A stretch of DNA of 64,000 bases, from positions 192,001 through 256,000 of the forward strand of contig CAYZJA010000001.1 in the NCBI GenBank assembly GCA_964479005.1, given 5' to 3'. Both the position numbers and the translations under genes were made by a program. This DNA comes from an uncultured Candidatus Saccharibacteria bacterium (GTDB taxonomy: Bacteria > Patescibacteriota > Minisyncoccia > UBA6257). This document shows positions 5,332-30,073 of the stretch, in pieces; position 1 is the first letter of the stretch, and each line of letters opens with the position of its first letter. The notes under the pieces were generated by a model, which was given only the letters and a program-made list of their open reading frames with translations, was not told the origin of the DNA and searched no databases.

Positions 5332-5859
5332 ATGGATAAAAAGAAAACAGTTAAAAAAACAACATCTGTAAAGAAAGAGACAAAGAAAACGGTGAAGAAA
5401 GAAGCGAAGAGAAAAGTAAAAAAAGAAGTCAAAAAAGCTGTAACAAAAAAGGAAGTCAAGAAGGAAATCAAGAAAAAGTATATTGAAGCTGTTGGTAGAA
5501 GAAAAGAATCTGTAGCTCGTGTAAGGCTTATCAAAGACAAGCCAGGTTTTATTATTAATGAAAAAACAATGGAAGAATATTTTTCTTTGCGGGATTATCA
5601 CAAAAAGATATTAGATCCTTTCAAAACAACTAATTTAGAAAATAGTTTTTTTGTTTCAATAAAAGTAAAAGGAGGTGGAATTACCGGTCAAGCTGAAGCT
5701 ATTAGATTAGGAATTAGCCGTTGTTTAATAAAAATTGATAAGAAATTAAAACCAGCATTAAGAAAAGCGGGATTTTTGACACGTGATGCTCGTATTGTAG
5801 AAAGAAAGAAATATGGTTTGAAAAAGGCTAGAAAGGCTGCACAGTGGTCAAAAAGATAA
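5332..5859 (+). CDS. rpsI: 30S ribosomal protein S9 with a lysine-rich N-terminal extension
   Basis: C-terminal 130 aa matches S9 (GRRKESVARVRL...GGGITGQAEAIRLGISRCL...RDARIVERKKYGLKKARKAAQWSKR); N-terminal 45 aa are VKKE-type repeats. Confidence 0.9.
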   Translation: MDKKKTVKKTTSVKKETKKTVKKEAKRKVKKEVKKAVTKKEVKKEIKKKYIEAVGRRKESVARVRLIKDKPGFIINEKTMEEYFSLRDYHKKILDPFKTTNLENSFFVSIKVKGGGITGQAEAIRLGISRCLIKIDKKLKPALRKAGFLTRDARIVERKKYGLKKARKAAQWSKR

Positions 5860-6088: not shown

Positions 6089-6316
6089 ATGAATAACAAA
6101 CCCATCATAACTAAGGAGAAAGCACAAAAACTTTCTAAGCTTTTCGATAATCCTACTAATTTTAAACAGGCTTGTATTAAGGTTTTATTAGAAGTACCTG
6201 ATGAAAAACTGGATTTTTACAAAGGGAACTTGACTTTTTCAAAAAATGGTGGTACAATTTTGACGAAAATAGAACAATTTTGCGAACAGAAACAATTTAA
6301 GAGTTTTAAGAATTAA
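6089..6316 (+). CDS. small hypothetical protein, paralogue 1 (75 aa)
   Basis: MNNKPIITKEKAQKLSKLFDNPTNFKQACIKVLLEVPDEKLDFYKGNLTFSKNGG...; about 70% identical to the next ORF; no SD; ATG abuts a TATAAT box. Confidence 0.5.
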   Translation: MNNKPIITKEKAQKLSKLFDNPTNFKQACIKVLLEVPDEKLDFYKGNLTFSKNGGTILTKIEQFCEQKQFKSFKN

Positions 6317-6317
6317 A

Positions 6318-6428
6318 CAATTGAATCATACAATTTAATTAGTTTGCCGAGAAGGTGACGCTAACCGAAGAGGGGCGTCTAGACTATCTCTAAGTTTATT
6401 AGGGGTCGTCTGGACACCCCTTTTTTCA
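6318..6428 (+). repeat. about 110-nt GC-rich structured 3' element, copy 1 of 2 (nested hairpins GGGGCGTC...GACACCCC plus T-run)
   Basis: Near-identical copy at 6662-6772; ends in CCCCTTTTTT (terminator-like). Confidence 0.6.
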
Positions 6429-6653
6429 ATGAATAACAAATTTATTATAAACAAAAGAAAATATCAGGAACTTTCTAAACTCTTTGATAATCCTACTAAT
6501 TTTAAGGAAGCTTGTATAAAACTTCTGTTAGAAATACCAGATAAAAAATTAGATTTTTACAAAGGGAACTTGACTTTTTCAAAAAACGGTGGCATGATTC
6601 TAATGAAAATAGAAGAATTATGTGGGTCAAAACACTTTAATTTTAAAGATTGA
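6429..6653 (+). CDS. small hypothetical protein, paralogue 2 (74 aa)
   Basis: MNNKFIINKRKYQELSKLFDNPTNFKEACIKLLLEIPDKKLDFYKGNLTFSKNGG...; ATG lies 2 nt after the T-run of the preceding hairpin. Confidence 0.5.
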   Translation: MNNKFIINKRKYQELSKLFDNPTNFKEACIKLLLEIPDKKLDFYKGNLTFSKNGGMILMKIEELCGSKHFNFKD

Positions 6654-6661
6654 ACCTACAT

Positions 6662-6772
6662 AGATTAAATCATACAATTTAATTAGTTTGCCGAGAAGGT
6701 GACGCTAACCGAAGAGGGGCGTCTGAACTATCTCTAAGTTTATTAGGGGTCGTCTGGACGCCCCTTTTTTTA
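6662..6772 (+). repeat. about 110-nt structured 3' element, copy 2 (stem GGGGCGTC/GACGCCCC plus T7)
   Basis: Direct repeat of 6318-6428 with a perfect outer stem in this copy. Confidence 0.6.
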
Positions 6773-6938: not shown

Positions 6939-8138
6939 ATGACAAAACGCAAATGGACTAAAGAAGATGACGAATATCTTATCCAACATAGTCCGAAACA
7001 ACGGGGAGATTATGGGAAGTTGGCTATCAAACTTGATAGAACAGTAGAAGCAGTGAGGTATAGGTGTAGAAATCTAAAATTGGAAAATGTCCAAAAGAAT
7101 AGTCAGGCACAGAGAACAGATGTTCCATTAGAAGATAGGATTTACGAATTGCTTTCACATTCCAAAAAACATTCTATTGAGGAGCTAAGTAATACATTTG
7201 ATATTTGTGTAGGAAAGGTTAAAGAAGCATTAGGTGTATTACAGAGCAGACGGATTTTAATAGACGCAATAGATGACAAAATTGTTTTAGGGAATACGAT
7301 TAAACCACCAAAAGCCACTCCAATTCCGATGAAGATTTATCATAATAGGTGGATTAAGTTTGGAGTAATCAGTGATACTCATTTGAACTCCAAATATCAA
7401 AGATTGGATATTTTAAACCACGCTTATAAAATCTTTCAGAAAGAAGGAGTGAAGAATGTTCTACACGCTGGGAATATTATAGATGGTTATGGTAGATTAA
7501 ATCAGTTTGATGTATTTAACATCGGGACAGAAGACCAAATCAACTATTGTATTGAAACCTATCCTTGTAAGCAAGGGATTACTACTCACTTCATTACTGC
7601 TGATGATCACGAGGGATGGATTGTAAGGAGAGAACACATTAACATCGGAGAATTACTTGAACTCAAAGCTAACAAAATGGGTAGAAAAGATTTGAAACAT
7701 TTAGGATATATTGAAAGTGATGTGTTAGTTAAAGTTGGAAGCAAACCTACAAGAATTAGAGTATTCCATCCTGGCGGAGGCACAGCATATTCTCTTTCTT
7801 ATAAACCTCAGAAGATTGTTGAGTCCTTACAGGGTGGAGAAAAACCTGATATATTATTAGTCGGACATTTTCATAAACTCGGACATTTTGAATGGCGGAA
7901 TGTGGAAGTGTTATTGACTGGTTGTATAGAAGACCAAACTCCATTTATGAGAAAGAAACATATTGCTGCTCATCTTGGTTTCTATATTGTGAAAGCCCAT
8001 ATTGCTCCTGACGGTTCTGTCAATAGATTCATTCCAGAAAAGATTAGCTATTACGATAGGAAATATTATACCAGCAGAGCTTGGAAGAAAACTCCTACCA
8101 GTTTTGAAAAACCTATTGAATGGTTTTACAAGTGGTAA
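6939..8138 (+). CDS. Myb/SANT-like HTH + winged-helix + calcineurin-like metallophosphoesterase fusion protein
   Basis: N-terminus W-x2-EDDEYL...G-x-W-x2-IA-x2-L-x-RT-x5-R (Myb-like); phosphoesterase motifs GVISDTHLN, HAGNIIDG, LLVGHFHK; strong SD AAGGAGGTG. Confidence 0.55.
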   Translation: MTKRKWTKEDDEYLIQHSPKQRGDYGKLAIKLDRTVEAVRYRCRNLKLENVQKNSQAQRTDVPLEDRIYELLSHSKKHSIEELSNTFDICVGKVKEALGVLQSRRILIDAIDDKIVLGNTIKPPKATPIPMKIYHNRWIKFGVISDTHLNSKYQRLDILNHAYKIFQKEGVKNVLHAGNIIDGYGRLNQFDVFNIGTEDQINYCIETYPCKQGITTHFITADDHEGWIVRREHINIGELLELKANKMGRKDLKHLGYIESDVLVKVGSKPTRIRVFHPGGGTAYSLSYKPQKIVESLQGGEKPDILLVGHFHKLGHFEWRNVEVLLTGCIEDQTPFMRKKHIAAHLGFYIVKAHIAPDGSVNRFIPEKISYYDRKYYTSRAWKKTPTSFEKPIEWFYKW

Positions 8139-8208
8139 GTATTCGCTCTTAAAACAAAACGGGGTGTCTTAAACACAGACACCCCTAATCTCACAGGAGG
8201 TGATTTTG

Positions 8209-8781
8209 ATGAAAATCTTAATCGATTTGGACGGAACAGTATTTGAGACTTACGACACTTTAGAAGAAAAGTTTGTCCAGAAATTTAATCGCAAAATGAA
8301 CTGGCAGGCGCTGAAAAGCGGCAAGAATCATTACTGGCAAACAGATGGGGGTAAGTGGATAGTCAAGCAATTCAAAGACCCAAACTTTTATTACAATTTA
8401 GAAACTTATCCTGATGCTCCCAAAGTGTTAAGGCAACTTGCCCGAAAACATACAATCATATATTGTACCGCGAGGAGGTTTGGATTAGAAAATGCCACCT
8501 CCTATTCGCTTGGTTATAGAAAACTGCCATTCGGGAAGGTATATTGTATTGGCAGGAGACACATTGCGGGGGTTAAAAAGAGAATTGCCTTAGATGAAAA
8601 AATTGACCTTGCTATTGATGATGAATCAAAAGTGGTAGAAAAACTTTCTGAAGTCTGTCAAGTTTTGATATTTACTCAGAATTATAATAAAGGTTGTAAA
8701 TTCGGTAAGAGAGTAAAATCTTGGAAGGAGGTGCGTCATGAATTACAAGCAAAGAAAAGAAATAATAGAACAAGCAAATAA
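8209..8781 (+). CDS. HAD-superfamily 5'(3')-deoxyribonucleotidase-like protein (NT5C family)
   Basis: MKILIDLDGTV (HAD motif I DxDGT) after SD AGGAGG; phage-type nucleotidase architecture. Confidence 0.55.
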   Translation: MKILIDLDGTVFETYDTLEEKFVQKFNRKMNWQALKSGKNHYWQTDGGKWIVKQFKDPNFYYNLETYPDAPKVLRQLARKHTIIYCTARRFGLENATSYSLGYRKLPFGKVYCIGRRHIAGVKKRIALDEKIDLAIDDESKVVEKLSEVCQVLIFTQNYNKGCKFGKRVKSWKEVRHELQAKKRNNRTSK

Positions 8782-22739: not shown

Positions 22740-22934
22740 ATGGATAATATAGATCAACTAATTGCGCAGGCTTCACAAATTTTTACTAAAGTTCTTTATG
22801 AGATAACTCATCTCACAGATCAGGTTTTTATATCTGGAATATTAGGACATTTATGGGCGTTTTTAAAAACAATAATCCAATTTATTATTCTAGCATTAGA
22901 AGCATTAGTTAGAATTTTAAAGTTTTTCGTTTAA
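22740..22934 (+). CDS. hypothetical small hydrophobic protein (64 aa)
   Basis: ORF only. Confidence 0.25.
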   Translation: MDNIDQLIAQASQIFTKVLYEITHLTDQVFISGILGHLWAFLKTIIQFIILALEALVRILKFFV

Positions 22935-22993
22935 CAAATAACAATAAAACAATTTAGCAATTTAGCAATATACTGAATTTGGGGGGAGTACTC

Positions 22994-23021
22994 TTGACAA
23001 GTCATCTAAGATGGCTATAAT
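22994..23021 (+). promoter_or_regulatory. promoter of the recombinase gene (TTGACA-16-TATAAT), with an AATTTAGC x2 direct repeat upstream and a GTTCGC-N14-GCGAAC inverted repeat in the leader
   Basis: TTGACA 22994-99, TATAAT 23016-21; tandem CAATTTAGCAATTTAGC at 22958-22975; inverted repeat at 23035-23063. Confidence 0.5.
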
Positions 23022-23109
23022 TAAAGTATAATAAGGTTCGCATAATTATAGTTAAGCGAACATCTAATATAGCTTATAATAGCCTATTATACATTGTCAC
23101 GTTAATAAC

Positions 23110-24066
23110 ATGAAAAAGAACCAAAAACCAATCCCCTGTCATTTATCTGATTTTTTAGATTGGTTAGATATTGAAAAAGGTTTATCTTCTAAATCCCAGG
23201 AAAATTATAATAGATTTTTAAAAAAATTTTTAGATTGGTTAAAATCAAATAATTTAGAGGGTTTAAAGCCTCATGAATTAACTACTGATCATGTTTGGAA
23301 ATATCGGGTTTTCCTCTCGCGCCGATATCTTCCTAAAACGAAAACACCCCTTAAAAAAACAACTCAAAATTATTATTTAATAGCTTTAAGGTCCTTTTTG
23401 AATTATTTTGCTGATAGAGATATTTTGTCTTTACCATCTGAAAAGATAAAATTAGCTAAAGATAGAGATGAAAAACAAGTTAGTTTTTTAAATTTAGAGC
23501 AATTAGAGAAATTATTTTCAGCTCCTGACACTTCTAAAAAGCAAGAATTGCGGGACAGAGCTATTTTAGAGGTTTTATTCTCTACTGGTATGAGGATAGC
23601 AGAATTAGTTTCATTAAACCGGGATCAAATTAAAATAAATCCTGGAATAAAAGAATTAGAAGTTGGGATTATTGGCAAAGGGAAAAAACTACGAACTGTT
23701 TATTTCTCTGAAAGAGCTCTATCTTGGTTATCTAAATACTTTAAAACCCGAAATGATGATGAAAAAGCGTTATTTATCAATTATAGAAGCAGGAAAGGAG
23801 CGCCACGGAGATTAACTCCACGTTCAATTGAAAAAAATATGAAAAAATATGTGATTATGTCAGGGGTTCCAATAACAACTACTCCTCACGCCATGCGCCA
23901 TACTTTTTCGACAGATCTTTTAAATCAAGGCGTGGATTTAAAAATACTCCAGGAATTTCTTGGCCACAAAAGCATTGCCGCTACACAAATTTACGCGCAT
24001 GTTACGAGTAAAAAACTTCGTGAGGTACATCGGAAATTTCACAGTGGCCGTAAATTAAAAACATAA
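23110..24066 (+). CDS. tyrosine site-specific recombinase (XerC/XerD / phage integrase family)
   Basis: N-terminal SAM-like domain; catalytic region HAMRHTFSTDLL...LGHKSIAATQIYAHV (R-H-R-Y signature). Confidence 0.8.
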   Translation: MKKNQKPIPCHLSDFLDWLDIEKGLSSKSQENYNRFLKKFLDWLKSNNLEGLKPHELTTDHVWKYRVFLSRRYLPKTKTPLKKTTQNYYLIALRSFLNYFADRDILSLPSEKIKLAKDRDEKQVSFLNLEQLEKLFSAPDTSKKQELRDRAILEVLFSTGMRIAELVSLNRDQIKINPGIKELEVGIIGKGKKLRTVYFSERALSWLSKYFKTRNDDEKALFINYRSRKGAPRRLTPRSIEKNMKKYVIMSGVPITTTPHAMRHTFSTDLLNQGVDLKILQEFLGHKSIAATQIYAHVTSKKLREVHRKFHSGRKLKT

Positions 24067-24085
24067 GTAAAATAAATAAAATAAG

Positions 24086-24113
24086 GTAGAGGTTTGTTCC
24101 CCTACCTTATAAA
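24086..24113. terminator. bidirectional stem-loop between the convergent recombinase and small-gene operon
   Basis: AAGGTAGAGG-tttgtt-CCCCTACCTT. Confidence 0.5.
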
Positions 24114-24129
24114 TTCAGCTTCTATGTTT

Positions 24130-24336
24130 CTACATTTTATTTTCAATCAATCTTAGAATTCTTTTCCATTTCTCAAAATTCTTATTAATAACTTTTGAAA
24201 TTTTTTTCCAATCTTCAGGGGATGGCTCACGTATGCCCTTTTTTGGTTCCCCTAAAAAGATTTCCCCTGTTTTTGTATCACAAACAATATCATCTCCATT
24301 TTCTAATTTACCTATTTCTTCCCAATTAGCCATCAT
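24130..24336 (-). CDS. hypothetical small protein (68 aa)
   Basis: 11-nt overlap with the upstream gene suggests translational coupling. Confidence 0.35.
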   Translation of the reverse strand: MMANWEEIGKLENGDDIVCDTKTGEIFLGEPKKGIREPSPEDWKKISKVINKNFEKWKRILRLIENKM

Positions 24337-24649
24337 TTTTCACCTCTTCGATAATTTTATCAATCTTTAATCTATCATTAGGTACAAGATCTTTCATTTT
24401 GAGACCGAAAACCTCATTAATTACGCGAGTAAGGATGTTTTCTAGATTTTCATTTACTTTTTCCTCTAATTCTTTTATTTGTCTCAGTAGGCCGTCAATC
24501 TCGATGTCTTTATGGATGTTTTTAGCTTCCAGCTCAGACCATAGATTCTCAAAATAAGATTTAATGGCTATGTCTAGCAGGTCTTTTTGGGTATCTGATA
24601 GATAGTTACAATTCCAAATAAAATCAATAAGTTTTTCCCTGAGAGTCAT
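24326..24649 (-). CDS. hypothetical acidic coiled-coil protein (107 aa)
   Basis: ORF; operon with its neighbours. Confidence 0.35.
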   Translation of the reverse strand: MTLREKLIDFIWNCNYLSDTQKDLLDIAIKSYFENLWSELEAKNIHKDIEIDGLLRQIKELEEKVNENLENILTRVINEVFGLKMKDLVPNDRLKIDKIIEEVKNDG

Positions 24650-24701
24650 TTATTCACTCCTCCTTTTTTTATTTATTTCAGATTTTTGAATCTCAATCTA
24701 T

Positions 24702-24899
24702 CTAATAAATTTGTGTCTTTTCTTTATGTATACCATCAAGAATTGCTTTTATTCGCGGTTCTGATTTTTTATTGATGTACTTCCCTTGGTCTTTTATTTC
24801 TTTTTTGCTCATTTTCTTACCTTTTCCTCTTGTCCGCGGTCTTTTTAGAATATCAGCCGGACTAGAGCACAATGTTATTTGCTCTGATATTTTTGCCAT
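24702..24899 (-). CDS. hypothetical small basic protein (65 aa)
   Basis: Lys/Arg-rich; first gene of a three-gene minus-strand operon. Confidence 0.35.
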   Translation of the reverse strand: MAKISEQITLCSSPADILKRPRTRGKGKKMSKKEIKDQGKYINKKSEPRIKAILDGIHKEKTQIY

Positions 24900-25121
24900 T
24901 ACAATCCCCTCCTTCTATATATTTTTTATATTTTTATTATTATTCAGTTTTCAATCTGCAAGCTACACAGTCATGTAGCCTTATTATATCAATAATCATT
25001 AGACCTGTCAACCCAGCACTACCTATACATAGGTGCGTGGGGTATATGAAATTGAATAAATAAATGCTAATATAACTAACATTGCCCATTATTATTTGTT
25101 AATTGTTATTTGTTAATTTTT

Positions 25122-26303
25122 ATGAGAATAAGTTATTCCAGTTTAGAGAATTTTAAACAGTGTCCTCTAAAATATAAGTTTTCTAATATAGATAAAATAA
25201 AAGAGCCTAAAAGCAAAGAGGCTATTTTTGGCACTTATATTCATAAAGTTCTGAAATGGTTTTATCAAAAAGATCCACACTTCCCTACTCTTGATGCTTT
25301 ATTAAAGTATTATCGTGATTATTGGCCTAGAAAAACAGAAGGATTTGAATGGAAAGATCCTGAAGAAGAAAAATCTTATTTCAAAGAGGGGTTAAGAATA
25401 TTAGAAGAATTTTATAAGAAAAATATTCCACATAAAACATCTATTTTGGATTTAGAAACAAGGTTTGAAGTTGTTATTGATGAAAATCCTAATAAACCAA
25501 ATGGCAAGCATATTTTAACAGGCGTAATAGATAGAATAGATAAATTACCAGATGATACAATTGAAATAATTGATTATAAAACAGGAAAAAGAATGCCTTC
25601 TCAAAAAGCTTTAGATAAAAATGATCAACTTTCTCTTTACGCTATTGGATTAAAAAGCCGTTGGCCAAGAACTAAAATTGAAGATTTACGCCTAAGCTTA
25701 TATTTTCTTAAGTTCAATGAAAGAATAAATACCAAAAGAACAGAAAAAGACTTGGAAGAAGCAAAAGATAAAATAATAAATTTAATTCATCGAATAGAAA
25801 AAAGCGATTTTGAACCTCATTCTTCAGCATTATGTGGTTGGTGCGGTTATCGTAATATTTGTCCAATTTGGCGGCATTTTTATGAAGACGAGGAAAGCAA
25901 TCATTTAAATGATATAGATATTAAAGAAAAAATAGATAAATACTTTGTTTTAAAAAAAGAAAAAGAAAAATTAGAACAAGAATTATTAGAATTAAAGAAT
26001 TTAATTGATGTTTATTGTCATCAAAAAGGATTAAAGCGCGTATTTGGTGAAAATGGTTATTTTAGCCATACTGTTTATAACAAAGTTTCTTATGATATTC
26101 CTAAATTAAAAGAAATTTTAGAGCCATTGGAAAAATGGGAAGATATTATTGAAATTAATGCTAAAAAATTAAAAAAGGTTTTAAAAGAGATACCTGCTGA
26201 TTTGAGGGAAAAAATAAAAGAAACAGAAAAAATAGAAGAAAAATTTAAATACTTATCCACCAACCATATAAGCAAAAAAGAAATCAAAGAGCAACTGCCT
26301 TAG
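25122..26303 (+). CDS. PD-(D/E)XK nuclease family protein with a Cas4/AddB-like 4Fe-4S cysteine cluster
   Basis: N-terminal ISYSSLENFKQCPLKYKF; D...ExK core GVIDRIDKLPDDTIEIIDYKTGK; C-terminal CGWCGYRNIC. ATG at 25122 is preferred over TTG at 25110. Confidence 0.65.
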   Translation: MRISYSSLENFKQCPLKYKFSNIDKIKEPKSKEAIFGTYIHKVLKWFYQKDPHFPTLDALLKYYRDYWPRKTEGFEWKDPEEEKSYFKEGLRILEEFYKKNIPHKTSILDLETRFEVVIDENPNKPNGKHILTGVIDRIDKLPDDTIEIIDYKTGKRMPSQKALDKNDQLSLYAIGLKSRWPRTKIEDLRLSLYFLKFNERINTKRTEKDLEEAKDKIINLIHRIEKSDFEPHSSALCGWCGYRNICPIWRHFYEDEESNHLNDIDIKEKIDKYFVLKKEKEKLEQELLELKNLIDVYCHQKGLKRVFGENGYFSHTVYNKVSYDIPKLKEILEPLEKWEDIIEINAKKLKKVLKEIPADLREKIKETEKIEEKFKYLSTNHISKKEIKEQLP

Positions 26304-28686: not shown

Positions 28687-30073
28687 AACTTTTCAATAAA
28701 TTAATAAATTTAGGGGGCATATTCGCTATTTTCCCTGGACCAGCAAAAAGGAAAACATCACCATCTTTTTGAAATTTGAAAAGATTTTTCAAAAAAGATG
28801 ATTCATTTTTTACAAGATGTAATTTATTTTTACTTAGGGTTTTTGTTTTTAATATCTCTTTATATATTTTTTCGCTGTTAATCCTTTTAATAGGTTTTTC
28901 ATTAGATGAATCTAGTGGTAAAAGAAATAAAATGTCACAATTCTTTATTGCTCGAGCAAAGTCTTTATACAGAAGAAAAATCCGAGAATAACGATGAGGC
29001 TCTAAAATGAATATAATTCTTCTTTTTGGAAAAACAATTCTTGCCATTCTTAAAGTACCTTTTATTTCAGTAGGATGATGCGCATAATCATCAACTATTG
29101 CAATTTCTTTATTATATAGGATGGAAAATCTTCTTTTTATACCAGTAAAGGTTTTTAAATATTGCAAGGCATCTTTTAAAGGAACATTGAGAATTTGTGA
29201 AGCAGAAATAGCGCCTAAAGCATTATAGATATTTTCTTTTCCAGGCAAAGAGAGTTCTAATCTTCCTTGAAATTTATTATTTATGAATAAATCCGAAAAA
29301 GTTTTTATTCCTTTATAATCAATATTTTTGACAAAAAGATCGGCTTTATTGTCTATCCCAAAAGTTAAAGATTTTCTTTTCTTTTGTTTTGCTATTTTTC
29401 TTAAAAAAGAATCATCATTATTTAAAACAATAAATCCAGACTGATTATTTTGAGAAAAATCTTCAAAAGCTTTTTTCAATAAAGAAAATTGTCCTTTGTA
29501 AGGACCATTAATATCTAAATGATCCTTATCAACATTAGTAATTACACAAAGAAAAAACGGAGTTTTTAAAAACGATTTATCGTGCTCATCTGTTTCCAAA
29601 ACAGAATATTCTCCTATCCCCCATTTACTTCCCAATGGATATGTTTTATTTTTAGCCCCTAAATAAACCGTTGGTTTTAATTTTGCTTTTTCTAAAATAT
29701 GGGCAATCATTGCTACAGTAGTACTTTTTCCATGAGTTCCTGCAATGCTAATAATCTTTTTTTCAGTCAGAATATCCATCAGAAAATCAAAACGATTCGA
29801 TAAAGGAACATTCATCTTTTGGGCTGTTTTAAGCTCAATGTTATTGACAGGAATTGCAGAAGAATAAATTACAATTTCTGCTTTTTTTATATTATCAGCC
29901 TTATGACCAATATATATCTTTGCTCCTTTTTTTTCTAAAATTCTTCTTGCTGCAAAATCATTTTTATCAGAGCCTGATAATGAATATCCTTTTTCTAATA
30001 AGAGATTGGCTAAAGCGGTCATTCCTACTCCTCCAATGCCGATTAAATGAATTTGCTTTTTCTTTATAGCCAT
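28673..30073 (-). CDS. murC: UDP-N-acetylmuramate--L-alanine ligase
   Basis: IHLIGIGGVGMTALANLL, GTHGKSTT (Mur ligase P-loop). Confidence 0.85.
   Translation of the reverse strand: MAIKKKQIHLIGIGGVGMTALANLLLEKGYSLSGSDKNDFAARRILEKKGAKIYIGHKADNIKKAEIVIYSSAIPVNNIELKTAQKMNVPLSNRFDFLMDILTEKKIISIAGTHGKSTTVAMIAHILEKAKLKPTVYLGAKNKTYPLGSKWGIGEYSVLETDEHDKSFLKTPFFLCVITNVDKDHLDINGPYKGQFSLLKKAFEDFSQNNQSGFIVLNNDDSFLRKIAKQKKRKSLTFGIDNKADLFVKNIDYKGIKTFSDLFINNKFQGRLELSLPGKENIYNALGAISASQILNVPLKDALQYLKTFTGIKRRFSILYNKEIAIVDDYAHHPTEIKGTLRMARIVFPKRRIIFILEPHRYSRIFLLYKDFARAIKNCDILFLLPLDSSNEKPIKRINSEKIYKEILKTKTLSKNKLHLVKNESSFLKNLFKFQKDGDVFLFAGPGKIANMPPKFINLLKSYEKE

Follow-up and report, generated by a model that had tools for sequence, protein, structure and literature searches.

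Does a tyrosine recombinase gene that lies beside a Cas4-like nuclease gene and three small genes mark an integrative or defence island, or is it the chromosomal Xer of its host? The locus that raises this question lies in a 64-kb stretch of DNA (64,000 nt, hereafter the window, to which all coordinates refer) from a contig of 551,616 bp; the window has a G+C content of ~30% and is part of a Paceibacterota (Patescibacteria) chromosome. The original prediction for this DNA had allowed for a chromosomal Xer while finding that the neighbourhood looked like a small integrative or defence module, and it is the first of these readings that is supported: the gene is a syntenic core gene with a dif-like site. 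Sequence comparisons lead us to propose, with a probability of about three in four, that the region holds a chromosome-dimer-resolution module composed of the chromosomal Xer and its dif site at 23035-23062. The features that carry this proposal are as follows.

23110-24066, plus strand: xer, encoding an Xer-type tyrosine recombinase of 318 amino acids with Phage_integrase and SAM-like domains.
22994-23021, plus strand: xer promoter of the sigma-70 type, TTGACA-16-TATAAT, matching the consensus at 12 of 12 positions.
23035-23062, plus strand: dif-like 28-mer, GGTTCGCATAA-TTATAG-TTAAGCGAACA, with 11-bp arms and a 6-bp centre.

The window recombinase carries the catalytic residues of the Xer group, R-K-H-R-H-Y, within the motifs TGMRIAE, GKGKKLR, HAMRHTF, LGHKSI and QIYAHV, and is the sole tyrosine recombinase in the window. 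Its best NCBIfam matches are XerC, XerD and XerA, and its closest solved relative is XerD (1a0p, E = 7e-37). Even in very divergent genomes the gene keeps its chromosomal position. When the neighbouring nuclease was used as the query, 49 related genome loci were recovered, 36 of them in Patescibacteria, and the close relatives (individual loci and contigs are given L numbers) share the order murG-gltX-p64-xer-gap-nuclease-p122-L27-L9-ctp-murC; in distant relatives xer is inverted or missing from the syntenic place. The nuclease is syntenic in the 36 Patescibacteria loci, with identities down to ~40%. The window also contains the housekeeping genes murG, gltX, L27, L9, ctp, murC, murD, groEL, dnaJ and tgt, and the identifiable genes near xer and the nuclease are all of this kind. 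This synteny places xer and the gene of the Cas4-like nuclease in the core and the three small genes in the variable part of the genome. In locus L001, for example, Xer and the nuclease are 94% and 90% identical to those of the window and the three small proteins are unmatched, and it is this constancy of the recombinase in relatives that lack the neighbours, together with the core status of the nuclease, that speaks against an integrative or defence module.

Upstream of xer, an inverted repeat GTTCGC-N14-GCGAAC had been put forward as a possible att core or autoregulatory site. The repeat is present at 23036-23061, is conserved in relatives and forms the core of the dif-like 28-mer, so that it is probably the target of the recombinase; the autoregulatory part of the claim would follow from its position. 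The 28-mer is intergenic, has an 11-6-11 layout in which 22 of 28 positions are palindromic, and has the form expected of such sites (~28-31 bp, inverted arms of ~11 bp, a centre of 6-11 bp, non-coding DNA). Its left arm, GGTTCGCATAA, is identical at 11 of 11 positions to the XerC arm of Erwinia carotovora (dif table, PMC2731167) and at 10 of 11 to that of E. coli. Using a position-weight matrix built from 12 related sites, the site scores 37.8, compared to 9.3 for the next best position in the window and a maximum of 16.1 in shuffled windows, and it is unique both in the window and in each related locus. Relatives share an almost unchanged left arm, TTCGCATAA, and differ in the right arm. The arms are unpaired, with the hairpin broken, in L006 and L007, which favours a protein-bound DNA site over an RNA stem; the stem is also broken in L014. 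A separate match to the E. coli arm at 29077 lies inside murC, has no partner arm and was set aside as chance.

The recombinase and the site are linked in relatives. In 12 genome loci the site immediately precedes xer; it does so in every relative that keeps xer in this place, and wherever xer has the inverted orientation the site is inverted with it. Searching metagenomes for the site yielded 80 loci. In 68 of these an xer gene starts no more than 250 bp downstream in the same orientation; of the others, five are cut by a contig end just past the site, five are chance occurrences in unrelated genomes and two have an unclear context. The two also change together. Between L016 and L017 the nucleases are 95% identical and the flanking DNA 85-90% identical, the Xer proteins are just 52% identical and the sites differ, with DNA homology restarting exactly at the outer edge of the site. 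Similarly, the flanking genes of L005 are 84-86% identical to those of the window and its Xer 61%; this Xer is closest to the L013 Xer, and the two loci share one site type. On these comparisons xer and dif act as a single cassette that can be exchanged while its chromosomal place stays fixed.

Several further observations were made on these loci. In L017 an open reading frame (ORF) that follows xer (7848-8465, minus strand) ends in YGEKTHKQFHPLKK, the C-terminal peptide of a third Xer type represented by L020, and by its sequence this tail looks like the fossil of a displaced xer allele; a homologue of ~190 amino acids also follows xer in L168. Loci L020, L021 and L034, whose Xer is ~36% identical to that of the window, have a different 11-6-11 palindrome before xer, ATTGAGTATAA-TATCCC-TAACACTCAAT, identified by eye. 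Among the complete metagenomic contigs (L089-L168), 15 of 56 end within 200 bp of the site, compared to 7.6 expected (p ~0.007), which suggests that assemblies break at dif since populations differ there. Finally, in five loci with an inverted xer (L016, L017, L019, L034 and L021) a G+C-rich hairpin followed by a T-run is located ~25 bp upstream of the site. Its loop, TGTGGATAA, is the reverse complement of the DnaA-box consensus, TTATCCACA; the hairpin could be a terminator, an attenuator or a DnaA site.

Strand composition suggests that the site lies in the region of the replication terminus. Plus-strand GC skew is positive up to ~23 kb and negative past ~27 kb, with a cumulative maximum at 27 kb, and the genes converge at ~27 kb. 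A model of codon position 3 that separates gene strand from replichore identified a significant switch (log-likelihood gain of 15.5), with the replication-linked change at 29-41 kb and the optimum at 33-41 kb. The switch zone extends over 23-41 kb, with the site at its left edge, and site and switch are 4-16 kb apart, no more than 3% of the length of the source contig (551,616 bp). Published dif sites lie within ~1.4% of the genome length from the skew shift and 3% at most (PMC3025954). The site would thus lie in the terminus region, at an offset within the published range. Oligomer polarity, determined by training and testing, flips at 23-24 kb for hexamers and at 35 kb for heptamers, with gene orientation as a confounding factor; GGGGA and GGGGAG flip polarity at 22-24 kb, although the choice of these motifs was biased. 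For GGGGAG, 14 of the 15 copies in the window point to the site, some of them on the non-coding strand, a pattern that resembles that of FtsK-orienting motifs and is likewise confounded by gene orientation. A GGGGAG(A/T)A motif located ~50 bp upstream of the site (22983-22990) is conserved in both gene arrangements.

A sister palindrome, ACGTCGCACAA-TATATC-TTTTGCGACGT, was found in six Yonathbacteria- and Nomurabacteria-like genomes, where it forms an island of invariance at a syntenic place following gltX and an M23 peptidase gene; in those six genomes no recombinase is present within ~10 kb of it. The 24-base core of this sister site has six exact matches on viral contigs, compared to ~0.05 that we estimate by chance. 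These contigs include a tailed phage with terminase and portal genes (L087) and two Zot-encoding, inovirus-like contigs (L085 and L088). The host syntenic genes are missing from all six contigs, and in four of them the site is no more than 350 bp away from a contig end. A site of the window type, AGTTCGCATAA-TTGACA-TTAAGCGAATT, is located in non-coding DNA of the tailed-phage contig L076. The presence of dif-like cores on phage-like contigs suggests that mobile elements mimic dif; such mimicry of a recombination site is known from CTX-type phages and from LME-1 in Legionella (PMC5357621, PMC9765430).

A perfectly symmetric site, AGTTCGCATAA-TTCCCA-TTAAGCGAACT, was also noted at 2204-2231 of the oriented copy of L124, a 3,030-bp contig with 29% G+C. 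It is intergenic among genes for small membrane proteins, and the contig, which has neither xer nor the host syntenic genes, could represent a small mobile element.

A mechanism like those of XerS/difSL, XerH/difH and XerA/dif can be proposed: a pair of Xer protomers would bind the two 11-bp arms, the two dif sites of a dimeric chromosome would synapse, and strand exchange over the 6-bp centre would resolve the dimer. Xer is probably the sole recombinase in this reaction, given that the site is symmetric and that such linkage of site and gene characterises XerS, XerH and some XerA systems (PMC5357621). The site begins 14 nt past the -10 hexamer of xer and so would lie within the xer leader. 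At this position bound Xer should hinder its own transcription, which would amount to negative autoregulation of xer by dif-bound Xer. The nuclease would be separate from Xer/dif, as a conserved housekeeping gene.

The promoter on which this regulation would act bears out the prediction that xer has its own promoter; it is perfect in both hexamers, and the -35 and -10 hexamers are kept in nine relatives with a window-like gene arrangement. Its spacer (23000-23015) is an imperfect palindrome that changes in a compensatory manner among relatives (AGCCAT..ATGGCT, AACGCATT..AATGCGTT, AACGCCTT..AAGGCGTT) and that L013 and L014 lack; another protein may bind here, at a second site. Neither xer nor the nuclease gene has a recognisable ribosome-binding site (23095-23109 and 25108-25121, respectively). 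Further upstream of xer is the direct repeat that the original prediction had reported.

22951-22966, plus strand: tandem octamer AATTTAGC x2, in a region that is unalignable in relatives.

This repeat is present as described and is not conserved, so AATTTAGC x2 is, on the sequence comparison, probably without function.

A number of points weigh against the proposed dimer-resolution module. The window Xer scores below the curated cut-offs of all four named families: 219.5 bits against 335.15 for XerC (TIGR02224), 213.9 against 329.6 for XerD (TIGR02225), 186.7 against 220 for the XerA model of NCBIfam and 123 against 267 for XerS (NF003462). The right arm, TTAAGCGAACA, agrees with the conserved XerD arm, TTATGTTAAAT, at only 6 of 11 positions, and the G+C content of the site is 36% compared to ~30% for the window and so is not lower, unlike in proteobacterial dif; the site thus meets neither of the criteria of Carnoy and Roten for proteobacterial dif, namely a G+C content under that of the chromosome and a conserved XerD arm. 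The best change point of the codon-position-3 model (33-41 kb) is 10-16 kb from the site, and a change point at 23 kb is significantly worse. In addition, the phage evidence is mainly of the sister type, and the sole phage contig with a window-type site has a different centre.

An alternative that we consider improbable gives the palindrome a purely regulatory role, as an operator of xer or a hairpin in its leader RNA, and puts the true dif elsewhere. Its start 14 nt past the -10 hexamer is where an element of the 5' leader would be expected, and the arms co-vary in several relatives. Yet the stem is broken in L006, L007 and L014 with the left arm invariant, and the sister site is kept without an adjacent xer and is found on phage contigs as well. 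A recombination site would account for the 11-6-11 form and for a left arm identical to a known XerC arm, and no Rfam family matched: the Rfam search gave nothing at 22-27 kb and just one tRNA across the window.

Slightly less probable still is an integrated mobile element or its remnant, in which xer would be the integrase, the palindrome attL and the small genes cargo. The layout of site, recombinase and variable cargo does resemble attL-int-cargo, the xer-site unit has been replaced horizontally, the same kind of site occurs on phage contigs, and the gene content beside xer varies between strains. Such an element should be bounded by two sites, but neither the window nor the 80 related loci yielded a second att- or dif-like site or direct repeats at the flanks; the search for flanking att repeats that had been suggested thus came out negative. 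Moreover, the position of the recombinase is constant across very divergent genomes, the sister site persists at a syntenic place with no recombinase nearby, the protein is Xer-like rather than phage-integrase-like, and relatives of the small proteins were not found on viral contigs in two single-protein scans. An integron was rejected (TIGR02249, 82 bits against 265), as the small genes are downstream of and convergent with xer and have no repeated sites between them. Element ends at an inverted repeat, 22931-22953 / 25094-25116, were also rejected: the repeat is not conserved, and in AT-rich DNA one like it is to be expected by chance.

An anti-phage defence or toxin-antitoxin island made up of the nuclease and the small genes is very improbable: the nuclease has weak PADLOC matches to Cas4, DruK and Argonaute-associated nuclease models, the small-gene content is strain-variable as in defence islands and the gap of one relative holds a MazE/AbrB-like gene, but the nuclease gene is syntenic and part of the core in 36 genomes, its Cas4 score is under the cut-off, there is no CRISPR array, cas1 or cas2, and the small proteins have no significant match in Pfam, NCBIfam, PHROG or PADLOC.

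The dimer-resolution reading can be extended, tentatively, to a locus with a history of exchange. Under this extension, which we hold to be possible and rather less probable than not, the xer and dif cassette of Paceibacterota would have been replaced repeatedly by divergent alleles at a single place at the terminus, with one junction exactly at dif and a fossil of the displaced xer left in L017; tailed and filamentous phages of these bacteria would integrate by mimicking dif, and this traffic would also have made the strain-variable small-gene island beside xer, the three orphan genes of the window among it.

The nuclease that adjoins the island is encoded as follows.

25122-26303, plus strand: PD-(D/E)XK nuclease of 393 amino acids, with its true ATG at 25122.

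The assignment as a PD-(D/E)XK nuclease with a C...CxxCx5C cluster was confirmed. The protein scores 132.9 bits against PDDEXK_1 (PF12705; gathering score of 22), contains the nuclease motifs GVIDRID and EIIDYK, and has a four-cysteine cluster of the AddB/Cas4 type, Cys14...Cys238-x2-Cys241-x5-Cys247, so that by sequence it has the features of a PDDEXK_1 nuclease with an AddB/Cas4-type iron-sulfur cluster. Its C-terminal domain is DUF7376, and no solved relative was detectable by sequence. A role as Cas4 in CRISPR adaptation was rejected on the basis of a Cas4 score under the cut-off (TIGR00372, 41.1 bits against 65), the housekeeping neighbours and the lack of an array, no CRISPR or other arrays being present in the window; nor did any defence-system model match beyond the generic Cas4 nuclease fold, and the defence reading offered earlier is not borne out. 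The nuclease is probably a housekeeping gene in DNA-end processing. In L041, L042, L043, L045, L047 and L048 (Riflebacteria, Ozemobacter) 3-5 nuclease-related segments lie head to tail on one strand; they might be paralogues in tandem or parts of a single multi-domain protein.

Between xer and the nuclease are the small genes and their control region, in which the following features were identified.

24702-24899, minus strand: Lys/Arg-rich protein of 65 amino acids, family E, first gene.
24326-24649, minus strand: all-helical protein of 107 amino acids, family D, middle gene.
24130-24336, minus strand: protein of 68 amino acids, family B, last gene.
24081-24110, no strand: hairpin (stem of 12 bp) that separates xer from the small-gene operon convergent with it.
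25011-24983, minus strand: small-operon promoter TTGACA-17-TGnTATAAT with an extended -10, conserved in relatives.
24962-24979, minus strand: partly conserved palindrome, GCTACA-N6-TGTAGC, where the operon transcript is predicted to begin.
25021-25034, no strand: palindrome ACCTATACATAGGT inside a strain-specific insertion of ~32 bp (25012-25043).
25088-25123, plus strand: tandem repeat with a 14-bp period and 2.6 copies, reaching the nuclease ATG.

The convergence of xer with three small genes of 65, 107 and 68 amino acids was confirmed at the level of the ORFs. The three had been described as overlapping, which is correct for the 107- and 68-amino-acid genes (11 nt) and incorrect for the 65- and 107-amino-acid genes, which are 52 nt apart. 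All three have strong GGAGG-type ribosome-binding sites (24900-24915, 24650-24670 and 24337-24350), and their promoter is a perfect sigma-70 consensus and very strong. The hairpin at 24081-24110 is terminator-like, with its T-run on the minus strand.

The divergent region between operon and nuclease, once given as 210 bp, is 222 bp. Of the repeats proposed there, the palindrome CTACACAGTCATGTAG exists and is located at 24963-24978, 5 bp from its predicted position of 24958-24973; the 16-mer CACCTATACATAGGTG does not occur, the real palindrome being ACCTATACATAGGT; and the tandem 12-mer is present in two copies that are separated by a 2-bp spacer, giving a period of 14 bp (Tandem Repeats Finder). 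The 14-bp-period repeat is limited to the window, L096 and L123. Among all repeats and promoters noted in the region, only the two promoters and GTTCGC...GCGAAC are conserved in relatives. In place of the ~32-bp insertion of the window, L096 and L123 have a hairpin element rich in G+C (...cgcaatgacag) immediately before the nuclease gene, and the divergent promoter region seems to collect small insertions.

In relatives the gap between xer and the nuclease measures ~0.5-2.6 kb and holds changing combinations of five protein families, for which we use our own labels A to E; the order in the window, counted from the promoter, is E, D, B. Combinations differ even among strains in which Xer is at least 92% identical, and other gap genes in relatives encode DUF218, ~250-amino-acid, membrane, MazE/AbrB-like and zinc-ribbon proteins. 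Family E retrieved its own cluster only in the database search and has members in the gap of most close relatives. Family D retrieved three clusters, with six representatives among 1.84 billion in an exhaustive profile search, and is found at the same place in L056/L057, L119, L123 and L097. Family B retrieved three clusters among 5.8 billion, with members at the same place in L005, L119, L139 and L168. The three small proteins of the window are unmatched in the 49 nuclease-related loci and gave nothing significant in the Pfam, NCBIfam, PHROG and PADLOC libraries, in which no recognisable toxin/antitoxin domain pair scored above curated cut-offs. AlphaFold2 predicted for the 68-amino-acid protein a fold of four strands followed by a long helix (pLDDT of 88), which had no match with E < 1 in the PDB by Foldseek; the model of the 107-amino-acid protein (pLDDT of 68) was too uncertain for a structure search. 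No link between the small genes and Xer was found. We conclude that the small genes are near-orphans that form a strain-variable accessory operon in a recombination-prone gap.

Elsewhere in the window, a 340-bp unit is repeated 1.9 times (84% matches) at 6129-6770, within a long non-coding stretch from an ORF end at 5859 to an ORF start at 6939.

How does the proposed module compare with known Xer systems? As in XerS/difSL of lactococci and streptococci, the recombinase gene adjoins its own site, the arms are near-palindromic and the site would lie in the terminus region (PMC5357621, PMC2731167); in contrast, difSL is an atypical 31-bp site while the window site has 28 bp and a 6-bp centre, and the window protein is not XerS by its NF003462 score. 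With XerH/difH of Helicobacter and Campylobacter it shares a site near the gene and one recombinase that would serve, but XerH is related only weakly to the window Xer (5jjv, E = 1.5e-12) and the site sequences are unrelated. Archaeal XerA/dif likewise uses one recombinase and a highly palindromic 28-bp site, with an xerA/dif module in some species, and XerA gives the window Xer a strong NCBIfam match (186.7 bits) and a good solved-structure match, though the score is below 220 and the window host is bacterial. XerCD/dif of E. coli and Pectobacterium has the 11-6-11 layout, the E. carotovora XerC arm identical to GGTTCGCATAA and, in XerD, the closest solved relative; the differences are that a single recombinase is seen in the window, that the right arm mirrors the left instead of resembling TTATGTTAAAT, and that G+C is not depleted. 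The dif-like cores on phage-like contigs, including Zot-encoding ones, recall the elements that exploit host Xer, namely LME-1 with XerL/dif in Legionella and the CTX-type elements. Here, however, no integrated element flanked by two sites was found, the sites are mostly of the sister type, and tailed phages are involved as well.

In the literature that we searched, no description of Xer or dif in the candidate phyla radiation was found, and a single-recombinase Xer/dif module is apparently undescribed for the phylum. The leads with more novelty, both of them unproven, are the exchange of the xer and dif cassette and dif mimicry by phages. The analysis also removes a false lead, in that the Cas4-like nuclease and the recombinase are housekeeping genes and not a defence or mobile island. 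Bacteria of the candidate phyla radiation have not been cultivated or are difficult to grow, and knowledge of how they maintain their chromosomes is limited. Against this background, xer and its site form a compact pair that could be tested in E. coli, and a defined dif site would give a precise terminus marker for checking genome assemblies as well as a means of detecting, in this phylum, temperate phages and further elements that use Xer for their integration.

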